This document shows, in pieces, positions 7,494 to 60,842 of a DNA stretch of 64,000 nt. Every line of letters begins with the position of its first letter. The first letter of the stretch is position 1. Position numbers and translations under genes: made by a program. Under the pieces are notes generated by a model. It searched no databases and was not told where the DNA came from. It saw only the letters and a program-made list of their open reading frames with translations. The stretch spans positions 195,287 through 259,286 of the forward strand of contig CAZKIH010000001.1 in NCBI GenBank assembly GCA_964552775.1. The letters are read 5' to 3'. The stretch is from an uncultured Ignavibacteria bacterium. GTDB taxonomy: Bacteria > Zixibacteria > MSB-5A5 > CAIYYT01.

Positions 7494-7530
7494 GAGTCGT
7501 TGAGTAAGCGCTGACAAAGATTATACTGAG

Positions 7531-7587: not shown

Positions 7588-7714
7588 GCAAGGCAATAGC
7601 TGAGCACTTCTTCAACATTTCCTTTGGGTCGGGTATGTTCCTCAACCCCCTCACTTTTTTCTTGACCTTTCCGCGCAGGCGACCTATCGTTTTTCGACAC
7701 TACGTGGGAGGGTC

Positions 7715-8302: not shown

Positions 8303-8309
8303 GGAAACT

Positions 8310-9380: not shown

Positions 9381-9440
9381 TTTTTGGGAAAACATTCGAT
9401 AATCAGGAGTAGGGTTGATTCAACCCGGTCATAGAAACTA

Positions 9441-9962: not shown

Positions 9963-10018
9963 TTCCTGATCTGCTAACTCATCGGTCTGGTTTCCGGACA
10001 AACCTTGAGGAGAGACCG

Positions 10019-11131: not shown

Positions 11132-11161
11132 CATAGCCCCCAACACCCTTTTTCTATAAGG

Positions 11162-11190
11162 AGTCCGAGCCGCAAGGCTCGGACTTTTTT
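11162..11190 (+). terminator. rho-independent terminator after pilT
   Basis: agtccgagcc-gcaa-ggctcggact 10-bp stem followed by ttttt. Confidence 0.6.
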
Positions 11191-11201
11191 GTGGGCTTAT
11201 C

Positions 11202-11888: not shown

Positions 11889-12080
11889 TGATGACGAAGA
11901 CGTCGCTGTTTCGTGCAGGAATCAAATCGTACCTGGGTGCGAACTGAGCTCGAGGCCGTGAACTTGTGATCGGATTTGTGTCAATTCAAGTTGCCAAAAC
12001 AGCGAGTATTTTGTATTCTTTAGACATAACTACATATCAATTGGGCCGAACGGTTGTCAGCCGGTCTAATGGAGTTGATC

Positions 12081-13532: not shown

Positions 13533-13657
13533 TTGGCAGGGCAGTTCAATAGAAGCGGAGTACGGTTGGCGCAAGACTGATTCACGATAACAACGCCGAA
13601 ATCCCACATTCTCATGCGACGTCGATACGGTTTCGTGTTACTATAGTTTCTCCTCAA

Positions 13658-15364: not shown

Positions 15365-15567
15365 GCTCTCCTCCTTTAGAAAATGCAGGATGAATCAAAA
15401 AAGTCAGGGTGGCGGTGAATGAAGGGTATATCCGACAGGTGCAACATTGCGCGTTGCATTTCGTTTCTGCTCGGAATTATCATCAAAATCAGGCTATACT
15501 GTGGCATAGTTAAGACGTCCCGGGACTCTGGTTGTGTAATCACCAACCATACAGTGCACCGACTCCT

Positions 15568-15894
15568 TTATTCCCACGATTGTTTGAAACCTGAACGATA
15601 CCAAGTCGACCACTCGGCGGGAGTGCTAAAGTTCTCTTTTGTTTCAGCCACAAGCGCGCTCAAGGCGCTTTGCTTCTCTTCCGCGCTCCCGACCCAGAGC
15701 AGGTTAATCAGCATGCGCAGGACGATCCGATCCCGATTCGAACGAAGGTACTCGCGCAGTTGACCTGCCCGGTCGGCCCCGGTGGGCAGGCCGAAACGAC
15801 TATCAAATGCCGGTGCGCCTGGAAGAATGGACATGATCTCACGATCGTACTGCCCTGCAATATGGCTGGACACACTGGGTATGCTATCGATCAA
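15568..15894 (-). CDS. hypothetical ORF in the same frame as, and contiguous with, the upstream 15955..17139 gene across a single TGA
   Basis: The track start is TTG. Twenty stop-free codons connect it to the TGA at 15955..15957. See the finding on this site. Confidence 0.25.
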   Translation of the reverse strand: MIDSIPSVSSHIAGQYDREIMSILPGAPAFDSRFGLPTGADRAGQLREYLRSNRDRIVLRMLINLLWVGSAEEKQSALSALVAETKENFSTPAEWSTWYRSGFKQSWE

Positions 15895-15954
15895 TCGGGT
15901 CCAGAGTTGAAGCGAGAGAATATCCTTGACGACATCGTTCTGCGCATCGGACGA

Positions 15955-44454: not shown

Positions 44455-45807
44455 TCACCTTGCGTGTGGCGTCGTTCCCTTAAGCTGTGCACTCTCCTTT
44501 TTTTCACCTCCAAACTGAATTCCGATTCCCTTGAGGAATTCGTATGGCGGCTCTCCACCCGCAAAGACGAAGACATAGTCGTTGACAAGAACAAGTTCAC
44601 CCGATTTCGCGGCGAGGACGACGTTTTCGGTACCTATTCGTTTTACCTGTGAATCAAACACGGCTTTGATCTTGCCGTTTTGTATTAGTTTGTAGACCGC
44701 GTTCTCATTCTTTTTCTTGATCCGATAGAACGCGTCGCGGCGGTACGAAATTGTGACACGATTATTGGGTTGCCGCGCTAACCCGACCGCCGCTTCGATG
44801 GCAGAATCGCCGCCGCCGACAACCAGCAAGTCGCGCCCGTTGTAAGATTGTGCGTCAACCAATTGATACATGACCTTGGGAAGTTCTTCACCGGCTACGT
44901 TGAGCTGCCGCGGCGTTCCCCGGCGTCCGATCGCAATCAAGACGTTTGCGCACGCGTACGTTGCGCGATTGGTCGCGACAGTGAAACCTTGTGGGGCCGG
45001 CATGACACCGATTAGCTTCTCGCTACCGTGGAAACTGCCGGCAATCTTGGTTCGCAGTTGATCCCACAGTTCGATCAAGAACTCCTTGCTGTACTCGTCC
45101 TTCTTGAGTTGACCGTACAATGGCAAATCCAGAGGCTGCGTCATTACAAGTTTGTTGCGCGGGTAATGACGAATGGCGCCGCCAAGATCATCCTGGTCAA
45201 TCAGCAGATAGCGAATTCCCAATTCCTGTGCCCTCAATGCCGCGGTAATTCCGGCTGGTCCGGCGCCGACAATAATGACGGCGTACTCGTAACTCATTCT
45301 TGTTTCTCTAATCCTGTCGGCAATCGTATCAATCACCAATTTGCCGTGGCTCACCGCGTTGCGAATGAGCGAGATGCCGCTCAACTCCCCGGCGATGAAG
45401 ATTCCAGGAACTGTGGTCTCCATAGTTTTGCTCAATACTGGAATGTCAGGGCGATCGCGGACATCGCCGAGCCCAACCTTTATTGCCCCAACTGGACACT
45501 CTTTTTCACAGGCGCCGTGTCCGACGCATCGTTCTCCGTTGATGATAGTGGCAACTCCATGAACGATACCAATCACATCACCTTCGGGACAGACCATCGT
45601 GCAAGTTCCACAGCCGATACAGAGACTCGAATTAATGAACGGAAACTGCGAACGCGGGCGGTCGATTCCCAGGGCGCGTGCTTCCGCCTTGCGTTCGATT
45701 GCAAGCTTGCGCTCGATCAGGAATTTGCGGACGTAAATCCCGAGGATGATCGAGGAAACCACAATCGTCACAATCCACGTATAGACTGACTCCATGCAAC
45801 GCCTCAA
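44455..45807 (-). CDS. membrane-anchored 4Fe-4S dicluster ferredoxin domain fused to FAD/NAD(P)-binding (thioredoxin-reductase-like) oxidoreductase
   Basis: N-terminal TM helix; two Cys clusters CIGCGTCTMVCP and CVGHGACEKECP; Rossmann motifs AVIIVGAGPAG and DLLVVGGGDSAIE. Last gene of the tightly packed cytochrome operon. Confidence 0.75.
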   Translation of the reverse strand: MRRCMESVYTWIVTIVVSSIILGIYVRKFLIERKLAIERKAEARALGIDRPRSQFPFINSSLCIGCGTCTMVCPEGDVIGIVHGVATIINGERCVGHGACEKECPVGAIKVGLGDVRDRPDIPVLSKTMETTVPGIFIAGELSGISLIRNAVSHGKLVIDTIADRIRETRMSYEYAVIIVGAGPAGITAALRAQELGIRYLLIDQDDLGGAIRHYPRNKLVMTQPLDLPLYGQLKKDEYSKEFLIELWDQLRTKIAGSFHGSEKLIGVMPAPQGFTVATNRATYACANVLIAIGRRGTPRQLNVAGEELPKVMYQLVDAQSYNGRDLLVVGGGDSAIEAAVGLARQPNNRVTISYRRDAFYRIKKKNENAVYKLIQNGKIKAVFDSQVKRIGTENVVLAAKSGELVLVNDYVFVFAGGEPPYEFLKGIGIQFGGEKKESAQLKGTTPHAR

Positions 45808-45818: not shown

Positions 45819-47465
45819 TCAAAAACGCCGGCCGATCTCGGCGCGAAAAGTGTATCCGTCTGTGTCGTCGCCTGAATTTCGCTGATACAAGAGATCTGCA
45901 TACCAGTTTCGAATGGCCTCGATGCGCAGCACTCCCTCCCACCACCGATTGCGGCGAGAATCATTGCTCAGGACCAAGTTATATCGATACAATCCATTAG
46001 CAACTTCAGCCGATAACTTGTCCCCGAATCGTTGCGTTACCCGGACATTGTAGTTGTAGCCATCGTTGGTCGGTCCATCGAACTTTGAGTAGCGAGCGCT
46101 GATCCGGGTCTGCGATGTTGGTATTCCTGACTTGCTTGCATAGAAAACCAGTGATATCGTCGGATCGGCTTCATCAGCGGCTTTGCGGTATCCAATCTGC
46201 GAATTCAAATCGAAGTGGAACGGCAGATTGAGATAGAGATCTGCCCTTGCGCCACGGCGTAATTGATCGTCAAACAGGCTGTCGGCCAGCGACTGTTGGA
46301 TGTACGTCCAGTAATTGCGACGCGTATCGTACGACGAACCGACTGTCACCTGCTTGTTTATGCGCCAGCGGGCATTCAGGTAGACACTGGACAAATCGAA
46401 ACTTGCACTGGTTCTTTCCTTGCGCCACCCGCGATTGAAGTCGATTTCAAATTGATTGCTAAACCATAAGCCGCTGCCAACCTTCAGCGAACCTTGCAGA
46501 TTTATCAGTTCGCGGCTGATGCTGCTGCCGTGATATTCGCCGGCAAAAGCCGCGTACTGCTCAAAATGTGTATTGCCATGATTGATACTCTCGTAGCCAA
46601 CATAGCCGCCATACTTCTGAAGCGTCATGTCGTCGGAGGTATACTGCCATCTTGGCTTGATTCCGCCTGAGAGTCCAACGTGCCACCCTGATCCTACATG
46701 ACGATCAATGGCGGCGCCATCGACATAACCAACCCGGGTTAGATGACGCGGCAGAATCCTCCCCATTTGGAAGGTGGTCGCGTTGTCACTCCCGCCATAT
46801 GACAATGATAGTTCATAAATACGATTATCCCATTCGCTGTTCGAAGCTCCGGAAGAGTACTTTCTCGAGCGGTCATCATATTGTCCCCGGGTGCGGACAA
46901 CAAGCGTCATCGGCAGTGCCCATAGATTGCTGGCGCGCAGATTGAATCGCATAGTCGATTGGCTGAAATCAAGGCCACCACCCGACTTGTCGTGCTGTTT
47001 CATCCATTGCAGTGCCACTGAACCATTCAGTCGAGTTGATTTGTTGTCGCGTCTGGCTCGTGGTGTCTTTGCCGCGGGATTGGAACTGCCTGCATTCGCG
47101 GTTTCTGAATCAACGGTATCTTGAGGAGCAGGTTCCACTCGACCAATCCTACTAATCACGGTCAGTAGCTGTCCCGTTTTGAGCTCAGCGCTGCCGTTGA
47201 CGATTCTGCATGATGCTGAGTGGTCAGAAGCATACGCCACCTCCAAAGTCACGACAAGACTGTCACCGAGATACAATCCTAACCGGTCGCCTTGCATCAG
47301 ACCATCGGCCTTGCCACCTTCAAGGTAAACCCGATCGATGGAGCGGTACTTGATTCGATAACTCGCAGGGTGTTGCATCTCTTGCGAGAAGCATCGCGCA
47401 GAATTCAGTAATGTCCCGGTGACAAGCGCAATTAGTGCGAGGAGCAGAAGTGGCCGACGGATCAT
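45819..47465 (-). CDS. outer-membrane beta-barrel protein, candidate porin partner of the adjacent multiheme cytochromes
   Basis: Signal peptide MIRRPLLLLALIALVTGTLLNSARCFSQE and a long alternating-strand C-terminal region ending ...GYTFRAEIGRRF (terminal Phe, the OMP insertion signature). Its start codon abuts the stop of the 58-heme cytochrome gene. Confidence 0.6.
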   Translation of the reverse strand: MIRRPLLLLALIALVTGTLLNSARCFSQEMQHPASYRIKYRSIDRVYLEGGKADGLMQGDRLGLYLGDSLVVTLEVAYASDHSASCRIVNGSAELKTGQLLTVISRIGRVEPAPQDTVDSETANAGSSNPAAKTPRARRDNKSTRLNGSVALQWMKQHDKSGGGLDFSQSTMRFNLRASNLWALPMTLVVRTRGQYDDRSRKYSSGASNSEWDNRIYELSLSYGGSDNATTFQMGRILPRHLTRVGYVDGAAIDRHVGSGWHVGLSGGIKPRWQYTSDDMTLQKYGGYVGYESINHGNTHFEQYAAFAGEYHGSSISRELINLQGSLKVGSGLWFSNQFEIDFNRGWRKERTSASFDLSSVYLNARWRINKQVTVGSSYDTRRNYWTYIQQSLADSLFDDQLRRGARADLYLNLPFHFDLNSQIGYRKAADEADPTISLVFYASKSGIPTSQTRISARYSKFDGPTNDGYNYNVRVTQRFGDKLSAEVANGLYRYNLVLSNDSRRNRWWEGVLRIEAIRNWYADLLYQRNSGDDTDGYTFRAEIGRRF

Positions 47466-50400
47466 TTAATCGTTTCCATCCGGATGACAATTCAGGCATG
47501 CCGCACTCTGCCAAGAATAGCCATTCTCGTCCTGGTGTTTGTCATCCATCGTTGCCTGACTGTGCTCATGGCAGAAAATACACTCGAAAACAGCATAGTT
47601 GGACGTGTTGACATGGCAATCATTGCAATTATCCCATGCTTCTCGATGCTTGCCCGAGTAGATCGGAAAGTACTGCGTGTCATGATTCCAATTAGCCGGA
47701 GTCCATGCCGTTGTTGAGTGACAGGTCTGGCAATCGGTCGGGAAGTTCGCTGCAGCATGACTTGGCGCAGTAGTGCCACTGTAGGCATCTTGATGGCACG
47801 AGAAACACAACGTCGGTGTAGCGACGTATCCACCAGAATGGCAGGCGATGCACATCAATCCGACATGCGCGCCCGTTAACGGGAAGTTGGTCGTACTATG
47901 GTTAAATGATGCCGGCTCCCAGGCAGTGGTCGTGTGGCATTCAGTACATTGGTGCGAGAATCCATTCGTCACATGATTGGGATCGGTCACGGCTGCAAAA
48001 TCGCCTTGGTGGCAGCTATAACAGTCTGCTGGTGTATTGGTGTATCCCGCAGAGTGACAAGCGACACACTGCAGCCCGGTGTGACCGCCGGTGAGAGCGA
48101 AGCCCGTAGTGCTATGATTAAACGTCGACGGAGTCCAGACGGAAGTCGTGTGACAGGTCACGCAATTGTGATCAAAATTGTTAGCAACGTGATTCGGATC
48201 GGCAACGCCTGCAAAGTCTCCTTGGTGGCATGAATAACAAGCCGTTGACGTATTGGTATATCCTGACGAATGACAAGCGAGACATTGCAGTCCGGAATGT
48301 CCACCCGTAAGTGGGAATTGTGTCAGGCTGTGATCAAATGTCGCTGGCGTCCAAGCCGTGGTCCCGTGACAATTGGTGCAGAGTTGATCAAAATTGTTCG
48401 TCACATGATTAGGGTCAGACACCGCTGTGAAGTCGCCGGAGTGACATCCAAAACAAGTCTGGCTCGTGCCCGCATACGTTTGCGAATGACAAGAAATGCA
48501 CTGGAGCGAAGTATGTGCTCCCACTAACACAAATCCCGTGGTAGTGTGGTCCCAGTTGGTCGACTCCCAGTTCAAAGTGCCGTGACAAGTGGCACAGTTG
48601 TTGTCGAATCCGGCACTTGTATGATTCGGATTTGTGGCTTCAGTTACATCTGCTTGATGACATGATATGCAGGTGTTCGGGGTGTTTGTGTAGCCCGAAG
48701 TATGACAGCTTACGCAGGTCGCAGTTGAATGGGCTCCAGTTAACGTAAATCCAGTCTGGCTGTGATCAAAATTGCTCGGTTCCCAGGCTGTTGTGGAGTG
48801 ACAAGTGCTGCAGTCGTGGTCAAAGTTATTCTGCACATGATTGGGATTAGACGTTGAAGTGAAGTCACCGCTATGACAGTCAAAACAGAGGTTTGGCGTA
48901 TTCGTATAGCCGGTTGCATGGCATGAGATACAAGCCAGCGACGTGTGCGCCCCGGTTAACGCGAATCCTGTTGAGCTGTGGTTGAAATTGCTCGGTTCCC
49001 ATGCTGTTGTCGAGTGGCAAGTGCCGCAGTTATGGTCAAAGTTGTTCTGCACATGATTGGGGTCAGTCGTCCCCGCAAAGTCACCGCTATGGCAGTCGAA
49101 ACAGAGGTTCGGCGTATTCGTATAGCCGGTTGCATGACACGATATACACGCCAACGAAGTGTGGGCGCCGGTTAAATTGAACCCAGTTTGACTATGGTCA
49201 AAATCAGCAGGTTCCCACGCCGTTGTCGAGTGGCAAGTGCCGCAATTATGGTCAAAGTTGTTCTGCACATGATTGGGGTCAGTCGTCCCCGCAAAGTCAC
49301 CGCTATGACAGTCAAAACAAAGCGTCGGCGTATTCGTGTAACCCGTCGAATGGCATGAAATGCAGTTCGCCGATGTGTGCGCTCCAGTTAACACGAATCC
49401 GGTAGCAGAGTGGTCAAAAGATGACGGTTCCCACGCCGTTGTCGAGTGACAACTCGTACAGTCGTGATCAAAGTTGTTTTGCTCATGGTCAGGATCGGTC
49501 GTTCCCGCAAAGTCACCGCTATGACAGTCAAAACAAAGCGTCGGCGTATTCGTGTAACCCGTCGAATGGCATGAAATGCAGTTCGCCGATGTGTGCGCTC
49601 CAGTTAACACGAATCCGGTAGCAGAGTGGTCAAAAGATGACGGTTCCCACGCCGTTGTCGAGTGACAACTCGTACAGTCGTGATCAAAGTTGTTTTGCTC
49701 ATGGTCAGGATCAGTCGTTCCCGCAAAATCACCGCTATGACAGTCAAAACAAAGCGTCGGCGTATTGGTGTAACCCGTCGAATGGCATGAAATGCAGTTC
49801 GCCGATGTGTGGGCTCCAGTTAATACGAATCCGGTGGCAGAGTGGTCAAAAGATGACGGCTCCCACGCCATTGTCGAGTGACAACTCGTACAGTTGTGAT
49901 CAAAGTTGTTTGTCACGTGATTCGGATCGGTAGCTGATGCAAAGGCTTCGCTGTGACAGTCGAAGCATTGAGTGGCCGTCCCAACATAGCCCCCGCTATG
50001 GCAAGAGATACAAGCTAAGGTCTGATGTGCACCAGTCAGGGCAAACTGCGTCTGATTGTGATCGAACGTCGCCGGCGTCCAGGCAGAATTGGAGTGACAG
50101 GAAAGGCAGTTGTGATCAAAGTTCCCGCCTTCGTGGTCCGGATCATTCGCTTGAGCGAAGTCGCCTGAATGACAGGAAAAGCACTGTGGTGAGGTGTTCG
50201 CGTATCCACCCGAGTGACACGACTGGCAATCAAGTCCGACGTGTCCGCCTTCGAGGGGAAACCCCGTGAGTGCATGATCGTAACCGCGCGGATCAACTGG
50301 CAGCCATCCTGCGGTCGTATGACAGCCGGCACAATCATGGCCCAGTCCATTCGTTACATGGTTCGGATCAGTTGCGGCGGCAAATGCCATTTGATGGCAT

Positions 50401-51743
50401 GAATAACAGTCGTTGGCTGTATTAGCATATCCAGCACTGTGGCACGATTGACATTCCAGCTCCAAATGTGCTCCATTGATAGCAAATCCAGTCTGATCGT
50501 GATCAAATTCCGCCGGCTCCCAGGCGGTTGTGGTATGGCATTGCTGGCAGTCATGACTGAAATTCGCGGCCTCGTGGTCGGGGCTATCGGTAGCGGCAAA
50601 TCCGCTACTGTGGCACGAAAAGCAGTCTGAAGCAGTGTTGGTGTACCCTTCGCCGTGGCAATTCTGACATGCTAAAGCCGTGTGCGCGCCGGTCAGGGCG
50701 AAACTCGTCGCACTGTGATCGAAGTCCGCTGGCTCCCACGCGTTCATATTGTGGCAAGTCGTGCAGTCATGATCAAAATTGCCGGCCGTGTGGTCCGGCT
50801 CGTCTGCGTCGGCAAAGGCGGAGCTATGACAACTGAAGCAGTCAGTAGCTGTGTTCGTGTAGGAACTGCTGTGGCAATCCTGGCACTCAACCTTGGTGTG
50901 CGCACCTTCAAGCGCAAAACTAGTCACATTATGATCAAAGGTCGCCGGTGTCCAGGCCGTCATCGTATGACAAGTTGAGCAGTCCTGTGAGAAGTTTGCA
51001 GCTTCGTGGTCTGGATCTGGTGCTTCAAGGTAATCGGCGTTGTGGCAAGAATAACAGTCAGTCGGCGTTCCGGCAAATTGGGTAGCGTGACAAGAGGCGC
51101 AGTCAAGGCCCTGATGTCCACCTTCAAGGATCGGAGTAGGTGGATGGTCGAATTTCGCCCCTTCCCACGTGACCGCCGACGAGCGATGACACTGTACGCA
51201 ATCGCTGTCGAATCCCGCCAATACATGATTGGGATCAGTGGTTGTGTTGAAGTCGCTTTCGTGACAAAACTGACAATCAGCAGGAGTGCCGGCATATTGT
51301 TCGCTCAGTTGTCCCTTATGACATGACTGGCAATCCACAATCGCGTGAGTACCTGCCAGCGGAAAACCGCGTGAAGCGTGAACTTCAAAAACTTCCTGTT
51401 CGTTCTGCCACCCGCGAGTTGTATGGCAATTCTGACAGGTTGAACCTAACTGACCATTGTGTTGATCGGCATGGCAATCGGCGCAATTATCAGGGGTTTT
51501 CGCAAACGTAAGGTCATTGTGACAAGCGATACACTTAATCTGTTTATGTTTACCGGATAAAGGAAATCCTGTTTCGTCGTGGCGAAACTTGGTTTCTGTC
51601 GGAATCTCTTTCCAGTTCCCGGTCGAGTGGCAGGTCGCACAATCGAACTTGATGTCGCCGTGGGGATTATCACCCTGGGCGATGGCAAGAATTGTGAGGC
51701 CGGCTGCGAAAGCAGTTGTCAGGCAGACTCTTACAAGAGTCAT
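47466..51743 (-). CDS. giant multiheme c-type cytochrome (about 58 CxxCH motifs; tandem c7-like triheme domains)
   Basis: Signal peptide; 1425 aa; about 58 CxxCH counted by eye. The repeating unit is ~72 aa with 3 CxxCH and conserved His (..FDH..TGAH..C.SCHS.GY.NT...CF.CHSGDFAG.TDP(N/D)H..NNFDH.C..CHST.AW.P), resembling polymerised cytochrome c7 (PpcA-like) domains. Confidence 0.9.
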   Translation of the reverse strand: MTLVRVCLTTAFAAGLTILAIAQGDNPHGDIKFDCATCHSTGNWKEIPTETKFRHDETGFPLSGKHKQIKCIACHNDLTFAKTPDNCADCHADQHNGQLGSTCQNCHTTRGWQNEQEVFEVHASRGFPLAGTHAIVDCQSCHKGQLSEQYAGTPADCQFCHESDFNTTTDPNHVLAGFDSDCVQCHRSSAVTWEGAKFDHPPTPILEGGHQGLDCASCHATQFAGTPTDCYSCHNADYLEAPDPDHEAANFSQDCSTCHTMTAWTPATFDHNVTSFALEGAHTKVECQDCHSSSYTNTATDCFSCHSSAFADADEPDHTAGNFDHDCTTCHNMNAWEPADFDHSATSFALTGAHTALACQNCHGEGYTNTASDCFSCHSSGFAATDSPDHEAANFSHDCQQCHTTTAWEPAEFDHDQTGFAINGAHLELECQSCHSAGYANTANDCYSCHQMAFAAATDPNHVTNGLGHDCAGCHTTAGWLPVDPRGYDHALTGFPLEGGHVGLDCQSCHSGGYANTSPQCFSCHSGDFAQANDPDHEGGNFDHNCLSCHSNSAWTPATFDHNQTQFALTGAHQTLACISCHSGGYVGTATQCFDCHSEAFASATDPNHVTNNFDHNCTSCHSTMAWEPSSFDHSATGFVLTGAHTSANCISCHSTGYTNTPTLCFDCHSGDFAGTTDPDHEQNNFDHDCTSCHSTTAWEPSSFDHSATGFVLTGAHTSANCISCHSTGYTNTPTLCFDCHSGDFAGTTDPDHEQNNFDHDCTSCHSTTAWEPSSFDHSATGFVLTGAHTSANCISCHSTGYTNTPTLCFDCHSGDFAGTTDPNHVQNNFDHNCGTCHSTTAWEPADFDHSQTGFNLTGAHTSLACISCHATGYTNTPNLCFDCHSGDFAGTTDPNHVQNNFDHNCGTCHSTTAWEPSNFNHSSTGFALTGAHTSLACISCHATGYTNTPNLCFDCHSGDFTSTSNPNHVQNNFDHDCSTCHSTTAWEPSNFDHSQTGFTLTGAHSTATCVSCHTSGYTNTPNTCISCHQADVTEATNPNHTSAGFDNNCATCHGTLNWESTNWDHTTTGFVLVGAHTSLQCISCHSQTYAGTSQTCFGCHSGDFTAVSDPNHVTNNFDQLCTNCHGTTAWTPATFDHSLTQFPLTGGHSGLQCLACHSSGYTNTSTACYSCHQGDFAGVADPNHVANNFDHNCVTCHTTSVWTPSTFNHSTTGFALTGGHTGLQCVACHSAGYTNTPADCYSCHQGDFAAVTDPNHVTNGFSHQCTECHTTTAWEPASFNHSTTNFPLTGAHVGLMCIACHSGGYVATPTLCFSCHQDAYSGTTAPSHAAANFPTDCQTCHSTTAWTPANWNHDTQYFPIYSGKHREAWDNCNDCHVNTSNYAVFECIFCHEHSQATMDDKHQDENGYSWQSAACLNCHPDGND
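49190..49840. repeat. three near-identical tandem 216-bp repeats inside the giant cytochrome gene (more diverged copies span roughly 48100..51000)
   Basis: Plus-strand shadow ORFs at 49223, 49421 and 49637 give nearly identical translations with a 216-nt offset. The minus-strand protein repeats TAWEPSSFDHSATGFVLTGAHTSANCISCHSTGYTNTPTLCFDCHSGDFAGTTDPDHEQNNFDHDCTSCHST three times identically. Confidence 0.75.
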
Positions 51744-51760: not shown

Positions 51761-53422
51761 TTAGAGTTTGCCGGTCTTTGAATCGTGGCAGTCTTTACAT
51801 TCAGTACCTAATGGCTTGTATCGGACTAAAACAGTCGATTCTTGAATGATATTGCCATGACATTCACTACAAGGCACCTTTGAGTGCGCTCCATCGAGAC
51901 GATACCGCGAGTCACGGTTATGGTCAAACTTCGAGGCCTTCCAATTGTCAGTTTGGTGACAACGGTCGCAGGCAGTCTGTCCGTCAATGACAAACTGCCC
52001 TCGATGAATATCTTTATGACATTCGTTGCAGTTTCTTGGCAGTAGCTCGAAAGTCAGAAGTGATACGTTAGTTTTATCATTTTTGTTCCCATGACAGTCA
52101 AGGCATTCGACACTTGCGTGCTTTCCAGTCAGTGGGAATCTGGTTGAATCGTGTGCAAAGAATGATTCTTTCCAACCCTCGACACCATGACAGCTCTCGC
52201 AGCCGCCACTGTTGATCAACTTGTCTGCCCTTCCACTATGCGGATCCTTGTGGCAGATTTTACAGGCAGTCTCTTGGTACGCAAATCTGTATTGGCGCTG
52301 TGACCTGCCAGACGGAGAGGTTACGTGACAGCCATCGCAGGGTACCGCAAGGTGTGCTCCTCGCAGTGGATAGTCACAGCTATCGTGCTGCTCAACCGTG
52401 AAGATTCCAGGACGAAATCCATCCACATTGTGGCAGCGTTCGCATTTCGCACCACCGGAGCTTCCAACAAAAGCGCCCTGGTGATAATCAGAGTGGCAAT
52501 CGCCGCAACTGGAGAACGCCAGCAACTTGCGGGGGCCCTCCTGCTTGTGACACTTTTCGCACTGCAGCGGTATATGCAGTCCCAAGAGCGGGAAGCGAGT
52601 CTTGCTGTGATCGAAGCTGTTGTTGTTAACTGCTCGCCATCCTCCTGTGTTGTGACACCCCGAGCAGTTCTGCCCGAGGCGATTGGCATGCGGGTCTTTG
52701 TGACACGCGCTGCACTCAGCGTAGCTGAGGCCGGTAAACTTCTGGTATGAAGTGTCAGCTACTGCCGACTTGTCGACGAGAACAGGATGACACTTGGTGC
52801 ACTCAGCCTTTTGATGTTGACCAGTCAGAGGATACTTTGCCTTTTGATGGTCGAACGAAACTGCCGGCTTCCACGCTGTGTTGGAATGGCAAGATTCACA
52901 CTTGTTGGAAACCTGACCACGATGTTCGTCAAAATGGCAGCTACTGCACTTAGTCGACAATCCCAGAAGTGTCCGGTTTGGATCTTTGCGCGTATCTCCC
53001 TCCTTCAGGTCCGGCACAACATTCTTAGCCGTATGACACTGCCGGCACTGCAGTGGCTTGTGCGCTCCACTAAGATCGTATCCAGTTAGCGAATGGTCGA
53101 AGGCTGCTTCACCGTCTTTCCAATATACCAAAGCGAAATCGCGACCATGGTGCTCGACATGACACTCTTCGCACACCTTGTATTGATTGCTTCCGTGAAG
53201 CCCGTCGAGTTCATTTAGTTGTTTCTGGATCAATGTGTGGCAGACCAGGCAATTGGGGCCAATCTGCTTTCGATCGGAACCATGACATGAACGGCAATTG
53301 TCGAGACCCTCCAAGTGGCTGTGTGCCTTCGAAAGGTCTCCCGGGGACAATTGTGCAAAGGCCGAGGCTGATATCAAGGCAGCGACGGCTGCGACAAATC
53401 GCCAATAATTGCTCGGTCTCAT
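51761..53422 (-). CDS. multiheme c-type cytochrome (about 20 CxxCH motifs)
   Basis: Signal peptide MRPSNYWRFVAAVAALISASAFAQ. 20 CxxCH counted by eye (CRSCHG, CLVCHT, CEECHV ... CKDCHD) and little else but heme-binding spacing. Confidence 0.85.
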   Translation of the reverse strand: MRPSNYWRFVAAVAALISASAFAQLSPGDLSKAHSHLEGLDNCRSCHGSDRKQIGPNCLVCHTLIQKQLNELDGLHGSNQYKVCEECHVEHHGRDFALVYWKDGEAAFDHSLTGYDLSGAHKPLQCRQCHTAKNVVPDLKEGDTRKDPNRTLLGLSTKCSSCHFDEHRGQVSNKCESCHSNTAWKPAVSFDHQKAKYPLTGQHQKAECTKCHPVLVDKSAVADTSYQKFTGLSYAECSACHKDPHANRLGQNCSGCHNTGGWRAVNNNSFDHSKTRFPLLGLHIPLQCEKCHKQEGPRKLLAFSSCGDCHSDYHQGAFVGSSGGAKCERCHNVDGFRPGIFTVEQHDSCDYPLRGAHLAVPCDGCHVTSPSGRSQRQYRFAYQETACKICHKDPHSGRADKLINSGGCESCHGVEGWKESFFAHDSTRFPLTGKHASVECLDCHGNKNDKTNVSLLTFELLPRNCNECHKDIHRGQFVIDGQTACDRCHQTDNWKASKFDHNRDSRYRLDGAHSKVPCSECHGNIIQESTVLVRYKPLGTECKDCHDSKTGKL

Positions 53423-53425: not shown

Positions 53426-54289
53426 TTAAGACAAACCCGCGAATCCAGTCCATATCGCAATTCCGATATGAACACCCATTATCAGGTACATAATAATGGC
53501 AAAGGGCTTGTGGATAACGTGCCAATAGTGAAATACTTCGCGCGTTCTATCCAGCATTTCGATACGTCGCGCAAGCGCGGCGCGCTCGAGGGCGAGCCGC
53601 GCCAGTTGCTTCAACCCGCGATCAACTGATGCAAATGATCGTTTCATATCCTTCATGAGGCGGCGAGTCAGCATCGGCCGGGCGAAGTCCGCCATGATGG
53701 CCCCAACCAGCAGCCTAAGAAATGAGCCCTCAGTCGAGATCATCCGTTTCGACAAAATCTCAAGCTGAGCCAATTGTTCCGGCGCCAGCCCATATTTGTC
53801 CCTCAAAATCTCCGTCGTCAATTGCACCTGTTTATCGACCTCAGTCATTGTCAGCTCATCGCCTTCCTGGTTGCGGGGTATTAGCTGATAGAGATAGCGC
53901 CCCAAGTATCCGCTTAGTGCCACCGCAATCATTGACCAGAATGCGACTGCTATCAGTCCCTGTACCTTAAATGACGAATGGAGAACAATGAAAAGCGGTC
54001 CGCACACACCAAGATAGATGTGTAGCTTCAACCAATTACGCAACGTGATTCTCTTGCCGAGCAGTTTGGTGCGTTTTCGAAGAGAATAGGACAACATCAA
54101 AACCATCATTGCCGAACCAATGTATCCGAATACAATTCCCAGACTCCCTGCCGGTCGCAGCGCACGATAGTCCTCGTGGTGCGGGCGCTCAATATAGGAT
54201 GTGCCGTAGTACTGGAGTCCAGCGACCAGGTAATAAACGATGATTATCAGGGTTAAAGTGTACAGAATGATCAAGAATTTTCTCATCAA
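53426..54289 (-). CDS. integral membrane protein with conserved His in TM helices; candidate b-heme/quinol-interacting anchor of the cytochrome operon
   Basis: 287 aa: 4 N-terminal TM helices, a ~110-aa cytoplasmic basic helical segment and a C-terminal TM. His residues in the TMs (HIYLGVCGPLFIVLHSS; HYWHVIHKPFAIIMYLIMGVHIGI). First gene of the operon; overlaps the next gene's start by 4 nt. Confidence 0.55.
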   Translation of the reverse strand: MMRKFLIILYTLTLIIIVYYLVAGLQYYGTSYIERPHHEDYRALRPAGSLGIVFGYIGSAMMVLMLSYSLRKRTKLLGKRITLRNWLKLHIYLGVCGPLFIVLHSSFKVQGLIAVAFWSMIAVALSGYLGRYLYQLIPRNQEGDELTMTEVDKQVQLTTEILRDKYGLAPEQLAQLEILSKRMISTEGSFLRLLVGAIMADFARPMLTRRLMKDMKRSFASVDRGLKQLARLALERAALARRIEMLDRTREVFHYWHVIHKPFAIIMYLIMGVHIGIAIWTGFAGLS

Positions 54290-54755: not shown

Positions 54756-55445
54756 TCAGTCTATCGCTCTGAGCCGGTAGCCGATTCCTGGCTCGGTCGC
54801 GATTAGGTCTTCTCGCAATGATTTGGAATTCAACTTCTTCCTCAACTGCCCGAAGTAAACCCGCAAGTATTGGCGTTGCTCGACAGCAGGAGGGCCCCAG
54901 ACTTCTCGCAGTATCTGTGTGTGCGTAACGACTCTGCCCACATGACGAGCAAGCAGCCGTAACAAATTATACTCAGTTGCAGTTAGATGCACGATGTTGT
55001 CGTCAACCGACACGATCCGTCCCACAAAGTCAATCTTGAGTGGCCCGGAGACAAAGACTGCCGATTCCTCCCCGGGGTGCGCGTGACGGAGAGCAACTCG
55101 TACTCGCGCGAGCAATTCAACAGCACTGAACGGCTTGGTCAGATAGTCATCAGCCCCCGCATCGAGAACCTTGACCTTGTCGGCGTCTGTATCCCTGACT
55201 GTGAGAACGATGATTGGCACTGTCGACCACTCGCGTATTCGACGGATGAAGTCATCGCCGCTCATGTCCGGCAGGCCGAGATCGAGAATGATAACTTCGG
55301 GCTTGAATGAAATTGCCTCGCGAAGACCATCGTTTGCCGTCGCGGCATCGCCGACTTGATAGCCATCGGTCTCCAGGCAGACTCTCAGAAGCTTGCGAAT
55401 TGCCGATTCATCATCAATGACCAAGACTCTCGTCGACTTGTTCAC
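54756..55445 (-). CDS. kdpE: two-component response regulator KdpE (OmpR family)
   Basis: REC domain (VLVIDDESAIRKLL...IILDLGLPDMSG) plus a winged-helix C-terminus. Overlaps kdpD by 4 nt. Confidence 0.85.
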   Translation of the reverse strand: MNKSTRVLVIDDESAIRKLLRVCLETDGYQVGDAATANDGLREAISFKPEVIILDLGLPDMSGDDFIRRIREWSTVPIIVLTVRDTDADKVKVLDAGADDYLTKPFSAVELLARVRVALRHAHPGEESAVFVSGPLKIDFVGRIVSVDDNIVHLTATEYNLLRLLARHVGRVVTHTQILREVWGPPAVEQRQYLRVYFGQLRKKLNSKSLREDLIATEPGIGYRLRAID

Positions 55446-58147
55446 AGGGACCCTTCCTCAGTCAGTGCTTTTGGCCGGCTGGCGATAGGTAATTCGATCT
55501 TAAATTCCGCGCCCCCTCCACTTCGATTGGCAACACGAACGCGTCCCTTGTGCAGCTCGACTATGCTCTTTGCCAATGAGAGCCCCAAGCCGATGCCCCC
55601 GGCAGGACTTCCGGGAAGTCGTCTGAACCTCTCGAAAACATGGCCGATTTCTGATGACGGAATTCCCGGCCCCTGGTCCAGGACTGAAATTGACAGATAG
55701 TCTGCCGATATTGCTGAGGAAATCTCGATACTGGAATTCGCAGGAGAGTACATCGCTGCATTTCTCAGGAGATTGGAAAGTGCATGCAGCAGCAACCCAA
55801 AGTCGCCGCTCAGCAGCAACGATTGTTCTCCGTAAATGACGTTTACCTGTCTCTCTCGCAGGAGACTTCGGCATTGCTCCACTGTCTCCCTGATCAATTC
55901 CTGGACATCAAACCACTCCAGATTAAGACGCAGAGTTCCGGATTGCAATCTCGACATATCGAGAAGGTTTTCTATCACATGATTGAGGCGGTCGGCCGAA
56001 ACAATAATTTCATCAGCGAGAGTCTCACGACCTGCGTCGCTGGACTTTAGCTTCGAGTCTCGTAACGCCGCAGCAAAACCGATTATTGCCGTCAGTGGCG
56101 TGCGCAATTCGTGTGAAATCGAGTTGAGTAGAGTCTGGTGAAGTTTTTCCGATTCCTCCAAGAGCGCCAAATCGCGATTTTGAATCTGCAATGCCTCGCG
56201 TTGCACCACAACAGCAGTCTGGTGGCAGAGCGCATAAAGCAAATCGTTTTGCTCACGCGAAAATTCCATGGGCTCGATTGGCCGGAACAAAAGGACTCCC
56301 AACTGCTCGTCTGCGACTCGCAGCGGGAGACACAGTGACCGCACCTGTGAGAGCGTTTCTGTCGACCATCCTGCCGGCTTGCCGTTTTCGTGCACCCAGG
56401 CTGCTACAGCCCAGTCGTTTGTATCCATGTCAATCGCACTCGTGCGAGCAATCCTCCCCAATTTTTGGGTTTTCTTGTCAGGTATCAGCAGACAAGAGCG
56501 GGCTTGAAACAACCGCTGAACTCGGCGATCAACTTCCTTTTCAAGTTGGTCCATTCCCTCAAGCTCTACCAAGGCGCGGACGAAGTCAAATAGCACCTGC
56601 GTTCGCAGCTCGCGCTGGCGCAGTAATCTCTCTTGCTTGATACTGCGCGCAGTCAGGATACCGGTGATTGTGGCTACCACAAAGTACGCCGCGAACATCA
56701 TGAAGTCTTCCGGTGCTGAAATGGAAAACGTAAACCTCGGTGGAATGAAGAAAAAATTCCAGACTATGGCACTGAGTGTTGCTGCAGTAAGCATCGCCGC
56801 AAACGAGCTCCGAAAAGCCAACAACATGATCGCCAAAAGATAGACAAATCCGACTGCGCGATAGCCGATCAGCGGCGCAAGCAACCAATTCAGTACCGAA
56901 ATTCCGGCTACCATTGCCAGAGCAGTGAGAACCGAAACTCTATCCACTTTCGGTGCCTGGATGATTGGCTTTCGCAGCGAATCACCGATCTCCATGTGGG
57001 GACGAATGACATGGATATCAATGTCCAGCCGCAGACGCACGAGTCGATCAAGAATCGTCCCGCCCCCGAGCAAGTCTCGCCAGAAGCGACGGTCTGGTCG
57101 GCCAACAATAATCTGTGTGATGTCGCGCTCCCGTGCAATTCGGGCAATGGCTGCAACAACGTCGGAATCGGCAGTCGTTACCACTTCTGCTCCGAGCTCC
57201 TGCGCCAAACGAAGATTCTCACGCAAGCACTCTTCGTCAACGGCCGAGAGAGGTGTTGCAGTATCCACATTGAGGGCGATCCAGGGCACGCGCATGGCAC
57301 CGGCATGGCGGCGCGTCGCTCTGATCAGGTCTTCGGAGGAGGGGCTGTGACTGACTGCCACCAATAGTCTCTCGGCTGTATTCCAACGCCCGGAAATGAG
57401 CAAACTCTGCCTGAGATCCTGCAATTCATGTTCTACCTGTTCAGCGGTCGCGCGTAATGACAGCTCGCGCAGGGCAGTGAGCGATTCCTCCTTAAAAAAA
57501 TTCTCGGCGGCCGCTTGCTTCCGATCCCCCAGGTAGACTTTGCCCTCGTGCAGACGCTTCAACAGTTCGGTTGGCGAAATATCAATCAGGGAAATCTCAT
57601 CGGCCATCCGAATTATGGAGTCCGGCACGGTTTCACGCACGGTCACGCCGGTGATACGTCTCACGACATCGTTTAGGCTCTCAAGATGCTGCACGTTAAG
57701 GGTCGAGTAAACGTTGATGCCTTGGTCGAGAAGTTCCTGAACATCGTGATAGCGTTTGGGATGTCTCGACCCCGGAGCATTTGAATGTGCGAGCTCGTCA
57801 ATAAGCACGAGAGCCGGTTTTCGCGCGATGATCGCGTCAAGGTCAAGTTCCTCAAGGTGAGTCCCTTTATACTCGATTACTCGCCGTGGGATGACCGTGA
57901 GCCCTTCTAACAGCGCCTGTGTCTCGGCTCGGCCATGAGTCTCTACGATTCCGACAACAATATCGACACCCCCGCCAAGCAACTCCTGAGCGGTCTTCAG
58001 CATGGCATACGTCTTGCCGACTCCGGCGGACATGCCAAAGAAGAGGCGCAGCTTTCCTGAGCGCGCCTTGGCTTCGTCACTCTTCAGCGCCTGTAAGAGT
58101 CGCTGGGGATCAGGTCGATCGGAGTTCGTCATTCTGGTTAGATTCAA
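55442..58147 (-). CDS. kdpD: sensor histidine kinase KdpD
   Basis: 901 aa: N-terminal KdpD domain with P-loop GMSAGVGKTYAML, a Usp-like domain, 4 TM helices, GAF, HisKA (SHELRTPLTAI) and HATPase. Confidence 0.9.
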   Translation of the reverse strand: MNLTRMTNSDRPDPQRLLQALKSDEAKARSGKLRLFFGMSAGVGKTYAMLKTAQELLGGGVDIVVGIVETHGRAETQALLEGLTVIPRRVIEYKGTHLEELDLDAIIARKPALVLIDELAHSNAPGSRHPKRYHDVQELLDQGINVYSTLNVQHLESLNDVVRRITGVTVRETVPDSIIRMADEISLIDISPTELLKRLHEGKVYLGDRKQAAAENFFKEESLTALRELSLRATAEQVEHELQDLRQSLLISGRWNTAERLLVAVSHSPSSEDLIRATRRHAGAMRVPWIALNVDTATPLSAVDEECLRENLRLAQELGAEVVTTADSDVVAAIARIARERDITQIIVGRPDRRFWRDLLGGGTILDRLVRLRLDIDIHVIRPHMEIGDSLRKPIIQAPKVDRVSVLTALAMVAGISVLNWLLAPLIGYRAVGFVYLLAIMLLAFRSSFAAMLTAATLSAIVWNFFFIPPRFTFSISAPEDFMMFAAYFVVATITGILTARSIKQERLLRQRELRTQVLFDFVRALVELEGMDQLEKEVDRRVQRLFQARSCLLIPDKKTQKLGRIARTSAIDMDTNDWAVAAWVHENGKPAGWSTETLSQVRSLCLPLRVADEQLGVLLFRPIEPMEFSREQNDLLYALCHQTAVVVQREALQIQNRDLALLEESEKLHQTLLNSISHELRTPLTAIIGFAAALRDSKLKSSDAGRETLADEIIVSADRLNHVIENLLDMSRLQSGTLRLNLEWFDVQELIRETVEQCRSLLRERQVNVIYGEQSLLLSGDFGLLLHALSNLLRNAAMYSPANSSIEISSAISADYLSISVLDQGPGIPSSEIGHVFERFRRLPGSPAGGIGLGLSLAKSIVELHKGRVRVANRSGGGAEFKIELPIASRPKALTEEGSL

Positions 58148-58707
58148 AATAACGAATCTAGGGCAATATTCAACCTCAATACGTTCACCCGCGGTTGCCC
58201 AATAAACCCGAGACTGAACGGCTCGACATTACTTTCGACCAATCGGCGTAACGGAACCAGTTGATCTTCACTTAGCCCACGCGCTTTAGCGACTCGTTCT
58301 ATCTGGTAGAAGGCTGCTTCCGGCGAAATGTGCGGATCAAGCCCGCTACCCGAAGCAAGCAGCAGCTCATCGGGTGGCTGTTTGCCGCCATTCGCCCCAG
58401 CCAATGACGCCTGTCGCGTCGTGATCTGCTCCAGCAATGCCTTGCTTGTCGGGCCGAGATTTGTGCCGCTCGATGGTTGCGCATTATAGCCGATCCCGGA
58501 GGGGCGCGGCCAAAAATAACTTGAATCGGTGAATTCCTGGGCGATGAGTTCTGATCCAATCAATCTTCCATTGGAATGGATAAGGCTACCGTTAGCCTGA
58601 TGCGGAAATAGCACCTGGGCAGCACCAAGCATTATCAATGGATAGATCACTCCGGTCACAATTGTCATTGCGCCGATGAGCTTTGCTGCTATCAAAAAAG
58701 TCTTCAT
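58144..58707 (-). CDS. kdpC: potassium-transporting ATPase subunit C
   Basis: 187 aa with an N-terminal TM and the KdpC family motif GVIYPLIMLGAAQVLFPHQANGSL. Confidence 0.9.
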   Translation of the reverse strand: MKTFLIAAKLIGAMTIVTGVIYPLIMLGAAQVLFPHQANGSLIHSNGRLIGSELIAQEFTDSSYFWPRPSGIGYNAQPSSGTNLGPTSKALLEQITTRQASLAGANGGKQPPDELLLASGSGLDPHISPEAAFYQIERVAKARGLSEDQLVPLRRLVESNVEPFSLGFIGQPRVNVLRLNIALDSLF

Positions 58708-58730
58708 TGAAGTTCCAGTCTCCCGACGAG

Positions 58731-60830
58731 TTACGAGATTAATCCCAATTGGGTGACAATAATGTCGATTATCTTAATTCCGACAAAAGGCACAATCAAA
58801 CCACCCAAGCCGTAAATCAACAGATTCCGACGCAAAATGGCTTCCGCGCCCAAAGGCCGATACTTGATCCCTCTCAAGGCCAACGGAATTAGAGCAACAA
58901 TTATGAGGGCATTGAATATCACTGCACTGAGAATCGCGCTCTGCGGAGACACGAGTTGCATGACATTGAGCTTTGCCAATGGACCTACCGAGCCTGACGT
59001 GGCATAAAGCACGCTGAACATCGCTGGCACGATGGCAAAGTACTTTGCTACATCATTGGCCACACTGAATGTCGTCAACGCGCCCCGTGTCATGAGAAGC
59101 TGCTTGCCGGTTTCCACCACCTCAATCAGTTTGGTCGGATTGGAGTCGAGATCAACCATGTTCCCAGCTTCGCGTGCGGCTTGCGTTCCCGTATTCATCG
59201 CCACGCCAACATCAGCCTGTGCCAAAGCGGGAGCATCGTTGGTGCCATCGCCGGTCATGGCAACCAAGTGCCCATTGGCCTGTTCCTCGCGAATGCGATT
59301 AAGTTTGGCCTCGGGATTGGCTTGAGCCATAAAGTCGTCTACTCCGGCCTCGGCCGCTATTGAGGCGGCTGTCAGCGGATTGTCTCCGGTTACCATAATC
59401 GTCCGAATGCCCATCGAACGCAGTTGCGAGAATCTCTCTTTGATTCCGCCCTTAACGACGTCCTTGAGATGCACTACGCCAAGAACAAAGTGTTCCTCGG
59501 AAACCACCAACGGCGTGCCGCCAGACTTTGAAATGCGGTTCACAATGGGATCGACATCCGCCGGCCAGGTGCCGCCGCTGTTCTCAATATGTTTCCTGAT
59601 TGCATCGCCGGAACCCTTGCGCAGAGTGCGTACCGGTTCGCCGCTCTCCAGGACATCGACGCCGCTCATCCGCGTTTGTGCGCTGAAGGGAACAAATCGA
59701 GCCAGGTGTGGCGGCAGTGTCTCGGCGCGCAATCCAAATCTATCTTTCGCCAACACCACAATTGATCTGCCCTCCGGAGTCTCATCACTCAACGAAGCCA
59801 ACTGCGCGGTCTCCGCAAGCGTCTGCGCCGGTACTCCCGGTACCGGTATGAACTCGGTCGCCATCCGATTGCCGAACGTGATCGTTCCTGTCTTATCCAG
59901 TAACAAGACATCAACGTCTCCTGCGGCTTCCACCGCGCGGCCGCTCGTGGCAATAACATTCTTTCGGATCATGCGATCCATACCGCTGATACCAATCGCG
60001 CTCAATAATCCGCCGATTGTTGTGGGAATGAGACACACTAACAGCGAGATGAGAATCGGCAGAGTTACGACTGCGGACAGGTCCTGCGCCGCTTCGTTGC
60101 CGCTGTAGTCAGCAAAAAGTTTGAGAGTGGCAACGGCAAGCAGAAATATGATCGTCAGGGCCAAGAGCACGAGACTCAGTGCGATTTCGTTCGGCGTCTT
60201 CTGGCGCTTGGCTCCTTCGACAAGGTTGATCATTCGGTCAAGAAACGAGTGCCCCTGTTCTGCCGTGATCGCGATGACAATACGGTCGCTGATCACTCGA
60301 GTTCCTCCCGTAACCGCGCTGCGGTCTCCGCCGCTTTCACGTATTACCGGCGCCGACTCTCCCGTAATCGCCGACTCGTCAACGGAGGCAATGCCTTCGG
60401 TGACTTCACCGTCACCGGGAATAATATCGTTAGCCTCACAGACAACAAAGTCTCCGGGTCGCAAATCCGCCGCGTTGACTTTGACTTCCTGGTTCTTGGG
60501 AAGTAACTTCCGGGCTATTGTCGAAGTCCGCATGCGTTTCAGGCTCTCTGCCTGCGCCTTGCCCCGGCCTTCAGCAACTGCTTCGGCGAAGTTGGCGAAC
60601 AACACTGTAAAGAACAGCCACAGGCAAATCTGCAGGTCGAATCCCGAAAAGTCGCCGCGAATGATATTCGTAAAAAAGGCTATCGCTGTGAGTATTGTCC
60701 CGATCAAGACCACGAACATCACGGGGTTTTTGATTTGCGCTTTGGGATTCAGTTTGCGAAAAGCATCGAAAGACGCTTGTCGCAGCAACGCTCCATCAAA
60801 TAGCGTAGTTGATTTCTTGGTATTCGTCAA
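58731..60830 (-). CDS. kdpB: potassium-transporting ATPase subunit B (P-type ATPase)
   Basis: 699 aa with DKTGTIT phosphorylation motif, TGDN and [10 protein letters not shown]. Confidence 0.95.
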
Positions 60831-60842
60831 TTTCCACCCTGC

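Follow-up and report, generated by a model that had tools for sequence, protein, structure and literature searches.

The 64,000-nucleotide stretch of contig CAZKIH010000001.1 considered here (the window), from an uncultured Ignavibacteria bacterium placed by GTDB among the Zixibacteria, carries on its minus strand five co-directional genes, the third of which encodes a c-type cytochrome with 58 heme-binding CxxCH motifs. The reading favored here, with a probability of about 0.62, is that this protein is the outer “wire,” variable in length, of a trans-envelope electron conduit that is encoded by five genes and belongs to the PCC3 type. Giant multiheme cytochromes are already known from genome surveys, with reports on PCC3 in 2017, on Saprospiraceae in 2024 and on Lentimicrobium in 2026. 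What is added here is the distribution of the system in new phyla, a fifth gene and two length rules, one cytochrome almost always carrying 20 hemes and the other 3n+1. The interest therefore lies in the well-defined and widespread system around the 58-heme protein, not in its heme count.

In the proposed conduit, a membrane-anchored cytoplasmic iron-sulfur (Fe-S)/FAD oxidoreductase would accept electrons from NAD(P)H. They would pass to an inner-membrane protein (IMP) with five transmembrane (TM) segments, in which two b-hemes stacked across the membrane would reproduce the NOX/ferric-reductase design in split form. A 20-heme cytochrome of constant size would then span the periplasm, a 22-strand barrel would provide the passage through the outer membrane, and the (3n+1)-heme cytochrome would hand the electrons to insoluble or distant acceptors. 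MtrA and GSU1996 accommodate one heme per 0.8–1 nm or so, by which measure the 58 hemes would reach ~45–60 nm if extended. We infer heme ligation, the placement of the cytochromes, the direction of flow, the NAD(P)H donor and the extended shape.

The 58-heme cytochrome and its triheme modules

By exact count the 1425-residue protein has 58 CxxCH motifs, with CxxxCH, CxxxxCH and CxxCK variants all absent, in line with the ~58 counted by eye in an earlier sequence-only reading of the window and above the figure of ~50 that it had set as a floor. The density is 24.6 residues per heme (roughly one per 24 had been estimated), and 2000 residue shuffles of the same protein yield 0.82 ± 0.90 CxxCH, with a maximum of 6. 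The 117 cysteines comprise 2 × 58 in CxxCH and one in the signal peptide, and the six commonest residues are T, A, H, S, C, and G. The calculated mass is ~150 kDa for the apoprotein and ~186 kDa for the holoprotein, and an exact copy of the sequence is present in the database (P0001, on a 323,733-bp NCBI contig). Judging by the named proteins that cluster with it at 90% identity, the genome is a Candidatus Zixiibacteriota metagenome-assembled genome.

The motif-to-motif distances repeat strictly as 32/15/25 residues, a period of 72 residues at which the protein is 52% identical to itself and which appears in the DNA as a tandem period of 216 bp (TRF). Segmentation yields a lone N-terminal heme followed by 19 triheme segments (1 + 19 × 3 = 58), the number of ~72-residue tandem units that had been read from the sequence. 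Sixteen of these segments are canonical, 14 of 72 and two of 75 residues, while two at the N-terminus and one at the C-terminus are divergent; unit 1 is of the type seen in the neighboring 20-heme protein (CxxCHxDxHxG). The canonical consensus is EPAxFDHSxTGFxLTGAHTxLxCxSCHSxGYTNTPxxCFSCHSGDFAxxTDPNHVxNNFDHxCxTCHxTTAW. In it H7, H18, and H54, the histidines of the FDH, GAH, and DPNH motifs already singled out by eye, are invariant across 15 aligned units, as are the three CxxCH. The mature protein offers 71 spare histidines for its 58 hemes and only six methionines, none of them conserved in the unit, which fits bis-His ligation throughout; all 58 hemes are thus probably bis-His ligated.

That this length is an assembly artefact, through expanded or collapsed repeats, or that the open reading frame (ORF) is no real gene, is scarcely credible. 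Such an explanation could draw on units 9–11, where the DNA identity reaches 89–97% and the longest exact repeat in the gene (209 bp) is found, and on the existence of close variants both longer and shorter. Variant P0133 (61 hemes, on a 2.8-Mb contig) has one added unit near residue 835, and P0122 (46 hemes, on an 8-kb contig) lacks residues 593–736 and 823–966. Against it, the bulk of the units are just 45–65% identical at the DNA level, every non-signal cysteine falls within a CxxCH, and 58 (or 61) hemes recur in orthologues of 51–91% identity from independent assemblies, some on contigs of 1.3–2.8 Mb. The search for orthologues of similar length, which the sequence-only reading had suggested, returned several such 58-heme proteins: P0002, P0132, and P0135 (88–89% identity) and P0123 (77%), all from independent assemblies and aligning without gaps, as well as P0010 (61%), P0027 (54%), and P0075 (51%), of 1419–1426 residues. 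Since 58 hemes are found in independent assemblies and the identity between units is low, the gene and its architecture are genuine and biological. Close relatives gain or lose whole units at units 9–11, and any assembly error is confined to about one or two units of that region.

The unit had been described as having the layout of triheme cytochrome c7, which would make the protein a longer homologue of the polymerized c7 proteins GSU1996 and GSU2210 of Geobacter. The resemblance is tangible: the protein matches Pfam PF14522 (Cytochrome c7 and related cytochrome c) at 182 bits over 10 stretches (cut-off 24.8), three bis-His-type hemes are packed into ~70 residues (~72 in the unit) as in PpcA, and the units are concatenated into a wire as in GSU1996. 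In addition, hhalign places the half-unit F..AH..CxxCH..CxxCH locally on PpcA, whose sequence was verified as PDB 1OS6. However, PF14522 is a broad family, and the c3 families PF14537 and PF02085 also match; the kinship is one of Pfam family or clan. More specific comparisons fail. Ligands and motifs follow the order H,H,C,C,H,C in the unit but H,H,C,H,C,C in PpcA, with none of six rotations in agreement; the CxxCH spacings are 15/25/32 against 24/14; and the alignment of a four-unit profile with PpcA is insignificant (probability 1.1%, E 0.049, 34 columns). The NCBIfam model of c7 polymers, TIGR04257 (nanowire_3heme), does not match the 58-heme protein, and the 20-heme neighbor stays below its threshold (22.7 bits, cut-off 40). 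The whole protein has no PDB match at E ≤ 0.01 in a phmmer search. A profile of the unit finds Desulfovibrio nine-heme cytochrome c and tetraheme c3 as its best PDB matches (E ~0.02–0.05), with no c7 or GSU1996 entry among its 22 matches at E ≤ 10. Each GSU1996 domain contains one His-Met coordinated heme, a pattern absent from the unit; with six methionines in the mature protein, a His-Met heme is no feature of the repeat. A GSU1996-type c7 polymer was accordingly rejected as very improbable, and the unit is best described, from its sequence, as a triheme module in its own right within the c3/c7 superfamily.

The family is large, with at least 2522 homologues at E ≤ 1e-10 among 8000 candidates scored. 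Within the best 120, 103 exceed 58 hemes, the median being 76 and the maximum 100 in a protein of 2484 residues. Published examples include PCC3 cytochromes with 63 and 85 hemes (PMC5566968), a 61-heme cytochrome from a Lentimicrobium metagenome-assembled genome (MAG; PMC13013709), 69 hemes in Desulfuromonadia (PMC11492766), and 112 motifs in a Paludibaculum MAG, in a survey whose top 50 is dominated by uncharacterized Saprospiraceae (PMC11495043). The expectation that the protein would rank among the most heme-rich polypeptides is not borne out: it is unexceptional and ranks low in the size range of its family. A heme number of 3n+1 is found in 101 of the 120 homologues (binomial p = 2e-30); the majority of the others are truncated proteins or contain CxxxxCH variants. 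The family therefore consists of one heme plus n triheme modules, of which the 58-heme protein is the case n = 19.

The divergent C-terminal module (YFPIYSGxH...CxxCH...CxxCHPxG) also occurs internally in 56 of the 120 homologues, including P0020, P0024, P0033, and P0038, where it is spaced at super-repeat periods of 222 or 370 residues (three or five units). The largest homologues, with up to 100 hemes, thus look like strings of multi-unit cassettes, while the module is single-copy in proteins of the Zixibacteria type. The mature 58-heme protein is also extremely acidic, with 145 Asp+Glu vs. 18 Lys+Arg, whereas the adjoining 20-heme protein is balanced (62 vs. 65). Acidity was considered as a sign of surface exposure and dropped, as the Emticicia homologue is Lys-rich by eye; it may be specific to lineage or habitat.

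The five-gene cluster and its relation to PCC3

The five genes are separated by 3, 17, 0, and 11 nt (Table 1). The IMP has five hydrophobic segments and contains the motifs W86x3Hx13H, S126GYLG, and W256x3Hx13H, whose four histidines and SGxxG are invariant in 24 diverse homologues. The positive-inside rule places its N-terminus and a 126-residue basic loop in the cytoplasm and its C-terminus outside, with one histidine pair near each face of the membrane. The protein is 100% identical to P0182 and yields only a weak DUF4405 match in Pfam; from its motifs it looks like a di-heme-b membrane protein. The 20-heme cytochrome matches Pfam Cytochrome_C7 and c3_2 and has 20 CxxCH motifs (27.6 residues per heme), 22 non-proximal histidines, no methionine in its mature part and a balanced charge.

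Table 1. Coordinates of the five genes and of the parts of the 58-heme cytochrome, numbered from the first letter of the window
Feature	Position	Strand	Details
Gene 1, inner-membrane protein (IMP)	53426..54286	minus	286 aa from ATG; TTG one codon earlier at 54289
Gene 2, 20-heme c-type cytochrome	51761..53422	minus	553 aa; Sec signal peptide (AFA/QL)
Gene 3, 58-heme c-type cytochrome	47466..51743	minus	single uninterrupted ORF, ATG start, 1425 aa
Gene 3, signal peptide	51675..51743	minus	aa 1-23, MTLVRVCLTTAFAAGLTILAIAQ; AIA/QG cleavage read by eye from the translation
Gene 3, N-terminal region	51168..51674	minus	aa 24-192; lone heme (CxxCH at 35) and two divergent triheme units
Gene 3, 16 canonical triheme units (units 3-18)	47694..51167	minus	aa 193-1350
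Gene 3, units 9-11, recently duplicated copies	49215..49862	minus	DNA identity 89-97%
Gene 3, C-terminal divergent triheme module	47469..47693	minus	aa 1351-1425, NWNHDTQYFPIYSGKH...CLNCHPDGND; kept at the C-terminus family-wide
Gene 4, outer-membrane beta-barrel (“porin”)	45819..47465	minus	548 aa; start codon abuts the stop of the 58-heme gene
Gene 5, membrane-anchored ferredoxin-like and FAD/NAD(P)H oxidoreductase	44455..45807	minus	450 aa from TTG

The barrel protein has 43 homologues, none of which contains a Pfam domain. Its AlphaFold2 model, built from a 38-sequence alignment (mean pLDDT 82), comprises a signal helix, a β domain (residues 35–105), a disordered linker (110–139) and 22 strands (145–547) that end in a C-terminal Phe. 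Foldseek matches in the PDB are outer-membrane barrels only, led by the PapC/FimD ushers and followed by porins and AlgE. The N-terminal β domain is small, is joined to the barrel by the 30-residue linker and includes an invariant Cys86 in a conserved DHSASC motif; it could serve to plug the barrel or to dock a cytochrome. The oxidoreductase probably starts at an ATG at codon 5, which would give 446 residues as in its orthologues. It matches Pfam Pyr_redox_3 (4e-45), Pyr_redox_2, and Fer4 families, and carries GxGxxG/A motifs at 181 and 331 and a ferredoxin domain with seven cysteines (CxxCxxCxxxCP and Cx5Cx3CP). An N-terminal TM helix is followed by positive residues, which would place the catalytic part in the cytoplasm. 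Scans for promoters and terminators at the operon showed no enrichment over shuffles and no clear operon boundaries.

The cluster is widespread. An IMP profile retrieves 3526 clusters (50% identity) at E ≤ 1e-3 from 1.84 billion representatives, and an IMP relative is encoded in 272 of 185,579 species-representative genomes. In the best 80 loci from these 272 genomes, the ORFs were searched with the five window proteins. These loci belong to Zixibacteria, Ignavibacteria, Calditrichota, Abyssobacteria, Acidobacteriota/Thermoanaerobaculia, Eisenbacteria, and others, and all but one are labeled non-proteobacterial or unclassified. The order IMP, 20-heme cytochrome, variable cytochrome, barrel, oxidoreductase is kept in 50 of the 58 testable loci, and five of the eight exceptions reach the end of the available sequence. 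Of 63 intact loci, 58 encode a first cytochrome of exactly 20 hemes, and the heme numbers of the second are 19, 22, 25, 28, 31, 37, 46, 52, 55, 58, 67, 70, 73, or 85. A fixed length in one and a free length in the other fit a fixed gap, the periplasm, and a part that is not confined between the membranes, respectively.

Some related loci (L040, L050, L052, L061, L074, L066, L033, and L062) contain an extra cytochrome of ~10 hemes (265–287 residues) between the variable cytochrome and the barrel, which the window locus does not have. Genomes with IMPs of 69–83% identity (L002, L003, and L008 vs. L005) are labeled inconsistently as “uncultured Ignavibacteria” or “Zixibacteria”; L002 and L003 share the 20/58-heme architecture of the window.

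A cultured carrier is the Bacteroidota type strain Emticicia oligotrophica DSM 17448, in which all five proteins are encoded on plasmid pEMTOL02 (EMTOL_RS21085-21110) beside ccsA, the oxidoreductase gene directly following that of the IMP. E-values relative to the window proteins are 1e-50 for the IMP, 2e-112 for the oxidoreductase and 8e-18 for the barrel, and the two cytochromes have 23 (2e-129) and 40 hemes (1e-244). In a plasmid search with the 20-heme protein Emticicia is the sole match, and among Proteobacteria the plasmid searches yielded only small IMP modules.

PCC3 was defined bioinformatically in Alpha-, Beta-, and Gammaproteobacteria by a porin, a large repetitive cytochrome, a cytochrome of ~21 hemes and an IMP (He et al., 2017, PMC5566968). 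The large cytochrome is variable in size and rich in T/S/A/G, with a median of 34 hemes; the IMP has ~300 residues and five TM segments, with SGxxG on TM4 and Wx3Hx13H on TM3 and TM5, motifs that recur in the unrelated IMPs of PCC4 (PMC5566968). All four parts have a counterpart here, in an order that agrees with the published listing. The 286-residue IMP carries every diagnostic of the PCC3 IMP, and the cytochromes of both systems have 22–39 residues per heme and are rich in Thr, Ser, Ala, and Gly. The PCC3 porin of L. cholodnii is predicted to have 22 strands, the number modeled for the window barrel, and in the Slit_0867-0870 cluster of Sideroxydans ES-1 the adjacent Slit_0868/0869 encode cytochromes of 17 and 21 hemes (tag positions read from the text). 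AlphaFold models of PCC3 cytochromes in a Gallionellaceae survey are described as long and mostly linear (PMC10734462).

PCC3 is described from Proteobacteria only, whereas the window cluster is found outside that group, in Zixibacteria and no fewer than five further phyla, and has a conserved fifth gene, which encodes the Fe-S/FAD/NAD(P)H oxidoreductase. The first cytochrome of the cluster carries 20 hemes instead of 21–27 (the proteobacterial ~21-heme proteins consist of seven or eight ~66-residue repeats with three hemes each), and the large one is built strictly of triheme modules to a total of 3n+1. Matched to PCC3 by design and published descriptions, the cluster represents a variant of that design in new phyla. 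It is almost certainly the same system as the “gigantic porin-multiheme cytochrome cluster” of a Lentimicrobium MAG (Bacteroidota), compared by description only, in which cytochromes of 61 and 20 hemes lie adjacent beside a porin (PMC13013709, 2026); 61 is 3 × 20 + 1, as against 58 and 20 here. The IMP, the oxidoreductase, the repeat structure and the distribution are not described in that paper.

With MtrCAB/MtoAB the cluster shares a cytochrome wire combined with an outer-membrane barrel, and a cytochrome gene that abuts the barrel gene. However, both window cytochromes score 39 bits with TIGR03508 (DmsE/MtrA), far below the cut-off of 192, and membership of the Mtr/DmsE family was rejected. 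The hemes number 20 + 58 instead of 10 + 10, a lipoprotein outer cytochrome is absent from the cluster, and the entry module in the inner membrane is a different one.

Electron source, direction and location of the proposed wire

The IMP resembles NOX, FRE, and STEAP proteins, which hold two stacked b-hemes (cited in PMC5566968), in its two histidine pairs 13 residues apart on TM3 and TM5. The operon also codes for an NAD(P)H flavoprotein, to set beside the cytosolic FAD/NAD(P)H domain of these proteins, and proteobacterial IMP homologues are annotated as “iron reductase” by NCBI. The IMP system differs from NOX, FRE, and STEAP proteins in having five TM segments instead of six, a dehydrogenase that is a separate Fe-S polypeptide, and a multiheme cytochrome chain as acceptor; Pfam Ferric_reduct (PF01794) does not match it. 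Further indications come from plasmids of Bradyrhizobium sp. BTAi1 and Methylophaga pinxianii. Here IMP homologues (E 1e-16 to 3e-19; annotated “iron reductase” or “hypothetical protein”) that keep both Hx13H motifs lie between a 7-heme cytochrome and an NAD(P)H flavoprotein composed of FAD_binding_6, NAD_binding_1 and Fer2, unrelated to the window oxidoreductase. The association of one IMP family with two non-homologous NAD(P)H-type Fe-S flavoproteins argues, from gene neighborhood, that a cytoplasmic dehydrogenase supplies the IMP with electrons, in the manner of NOX and ferric reductases, and that quinol does not. On the Bradyrhizobium plasmid (L083, pBBta01, 7254–15900), the neighbors of the module are gnd, zwf, tal, and a petA-like Rieske gene; the first three are NAD(P)H-generating pentose-phosphate genes, which fits an NAD(P)H source and may be coincidence.

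A broader proposition is that the cluster represents a previously undescribed extracellular electron route, NAD(P)H-fed, quinone-independent and widespread outside the Proteobacteria. It would combine a split NOX-like module, a periplasmic 20-heme ruler, a barrel and a single-polypeptide nanowire whose length is set genetically in triheme steps, from 19 to about 100 hemes or roughly 15–90 nm. This proposition is tentative and, taken as a whole, rather doubtful.

The same machine might run in reverse, taking up electrons from extracellular donors such as Fe(II) minerals, cathodes or partner cells. PCC3 was defined in genomes of Fe(II) oxidizers and modeled as an uptake route (PMC5566968), Mtr/Mto-type multiheme conduits are regarded as reversible (PMC10734462), and no feature of the sequence fixes the direction. 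Inward flow nevertheless appears unlikely. The reduction of NAD(P)+ from donors at the level of Fe(II), through a non-pumping chain of b-hemes and Fe-S centers, would be uphill, and organoheterotrophy prevails in the phyla in which the cluster occurs. PCC3 itself is “functionally unverified,” and its expression in Sideroxydans is not induced by Fe(II) and does not follow Fe(II) oxidation (PMC8788666, PMC12442390), a finding that counts against uptake and also against the conduit proposed here.

The 58-heme protein could also stay periplasmic, storing electrons (a capacitor) or serving as a lateral wire. It has a Sec signal and no evident signal for export to the outer membrane, and GSU1996-type and other large cytochromes have been suggested to act as capacitors (PMC7399161, PMC11495043). 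A periplasmic location is improbable, however, given the tight coupling of the gene to that of the barrel, with a gap of 0 nt here and throughout the family, and the five-fold variation in length beside a neighbor fixed at 20 hemes. A rod of tens of nanometers would also be too long to stand across the periplasm, though it could lie parallel to the membranes.

An outer wire in a PCC3-type conduit remains the favored role, and the sequence-only reading, which had proposed a long heme wire from the periplasm to the exterior, is strengthened by an operon in which genes for a second cytochrome and for an outer-membrane barrel of 22 strands are also present. Several observations, besides the Sideroxydans data, weigh against it. 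The 58-heme protein has no lipobox at its cleavage site (translation read by eye), nor a type-9 or other recognizable export signal, and could sit partly or wholly in the periplasm. As the abutting genes recall mtrA-mtrB, the partner inserted in the barrel might be the 58-heme protein itself and not the 20-heme cytochrome. MtrB forms a barrel of 26 strands, larger than the 22 modeled here, and is absent from the top 50 Foldseek matches of the barrel model. A structural model of a repeat segment, the test that had been suggested for heme-heme distances, could be produced for four units, at low confidence (pLDDT 67, pTM 0.30) and with no structural matches. NAD(P)H specificity and the direction of flow are read only from domain content and gene neighborhood, whereas He et al. 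proposed that the PCC3 IMP binds two b-hemes as a quinol-active cytochrome b (PMC5566968). Finally, the likeness to the proteobacterial PCC3 proteins is one of shared design, drawn from their description.

Implications and flanking genes

Three ideas are raised by the cluster: that the fixed cytochrome measures the periplasm, that the variable one is an external wire, and that electrons enter from an NAD(P)H flavoprotein and not from quinol. If they are true, Zixibacteria, Ignavibacteria, Calditrichota, Acidobacteriota, and Bacteroidota, phyla that are poorly studied and common in sediments, aquifers and sludge, would own a route of electron exchange with minerals or partner cells. The large cytochromes would represent natural single-chain wires of defined and programmable length. 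A quinone-independent route would allow fermentative or facultative heterotrophs to discharge electrons from NAD(P)H onto distant solids with no need for multi-subunit filaments. The presence of the system on a plasmid of the cultured Emticicia type strain makes experiments possible.

Directly upstream of the operon, after a gap of 466 bp, lies a complete kdpABC-kdpD-kdpE potassium operon (54756–62531, minus strand) with no evident functional link. A Dockerin_1-like C-terminal domain is found in three window proteins that are otherwise unrelated and of secreted type: a beta-helix/TSP3 protein (2526–4643, minus), an unannotated protein (12054–13532, plus) and an M14 carboxypeptidase (37037–39679, minus). 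The 58-heme cytochrome does not have this C-terminal domain, which may serve in sorting or anchoring and be particular to the lineage.

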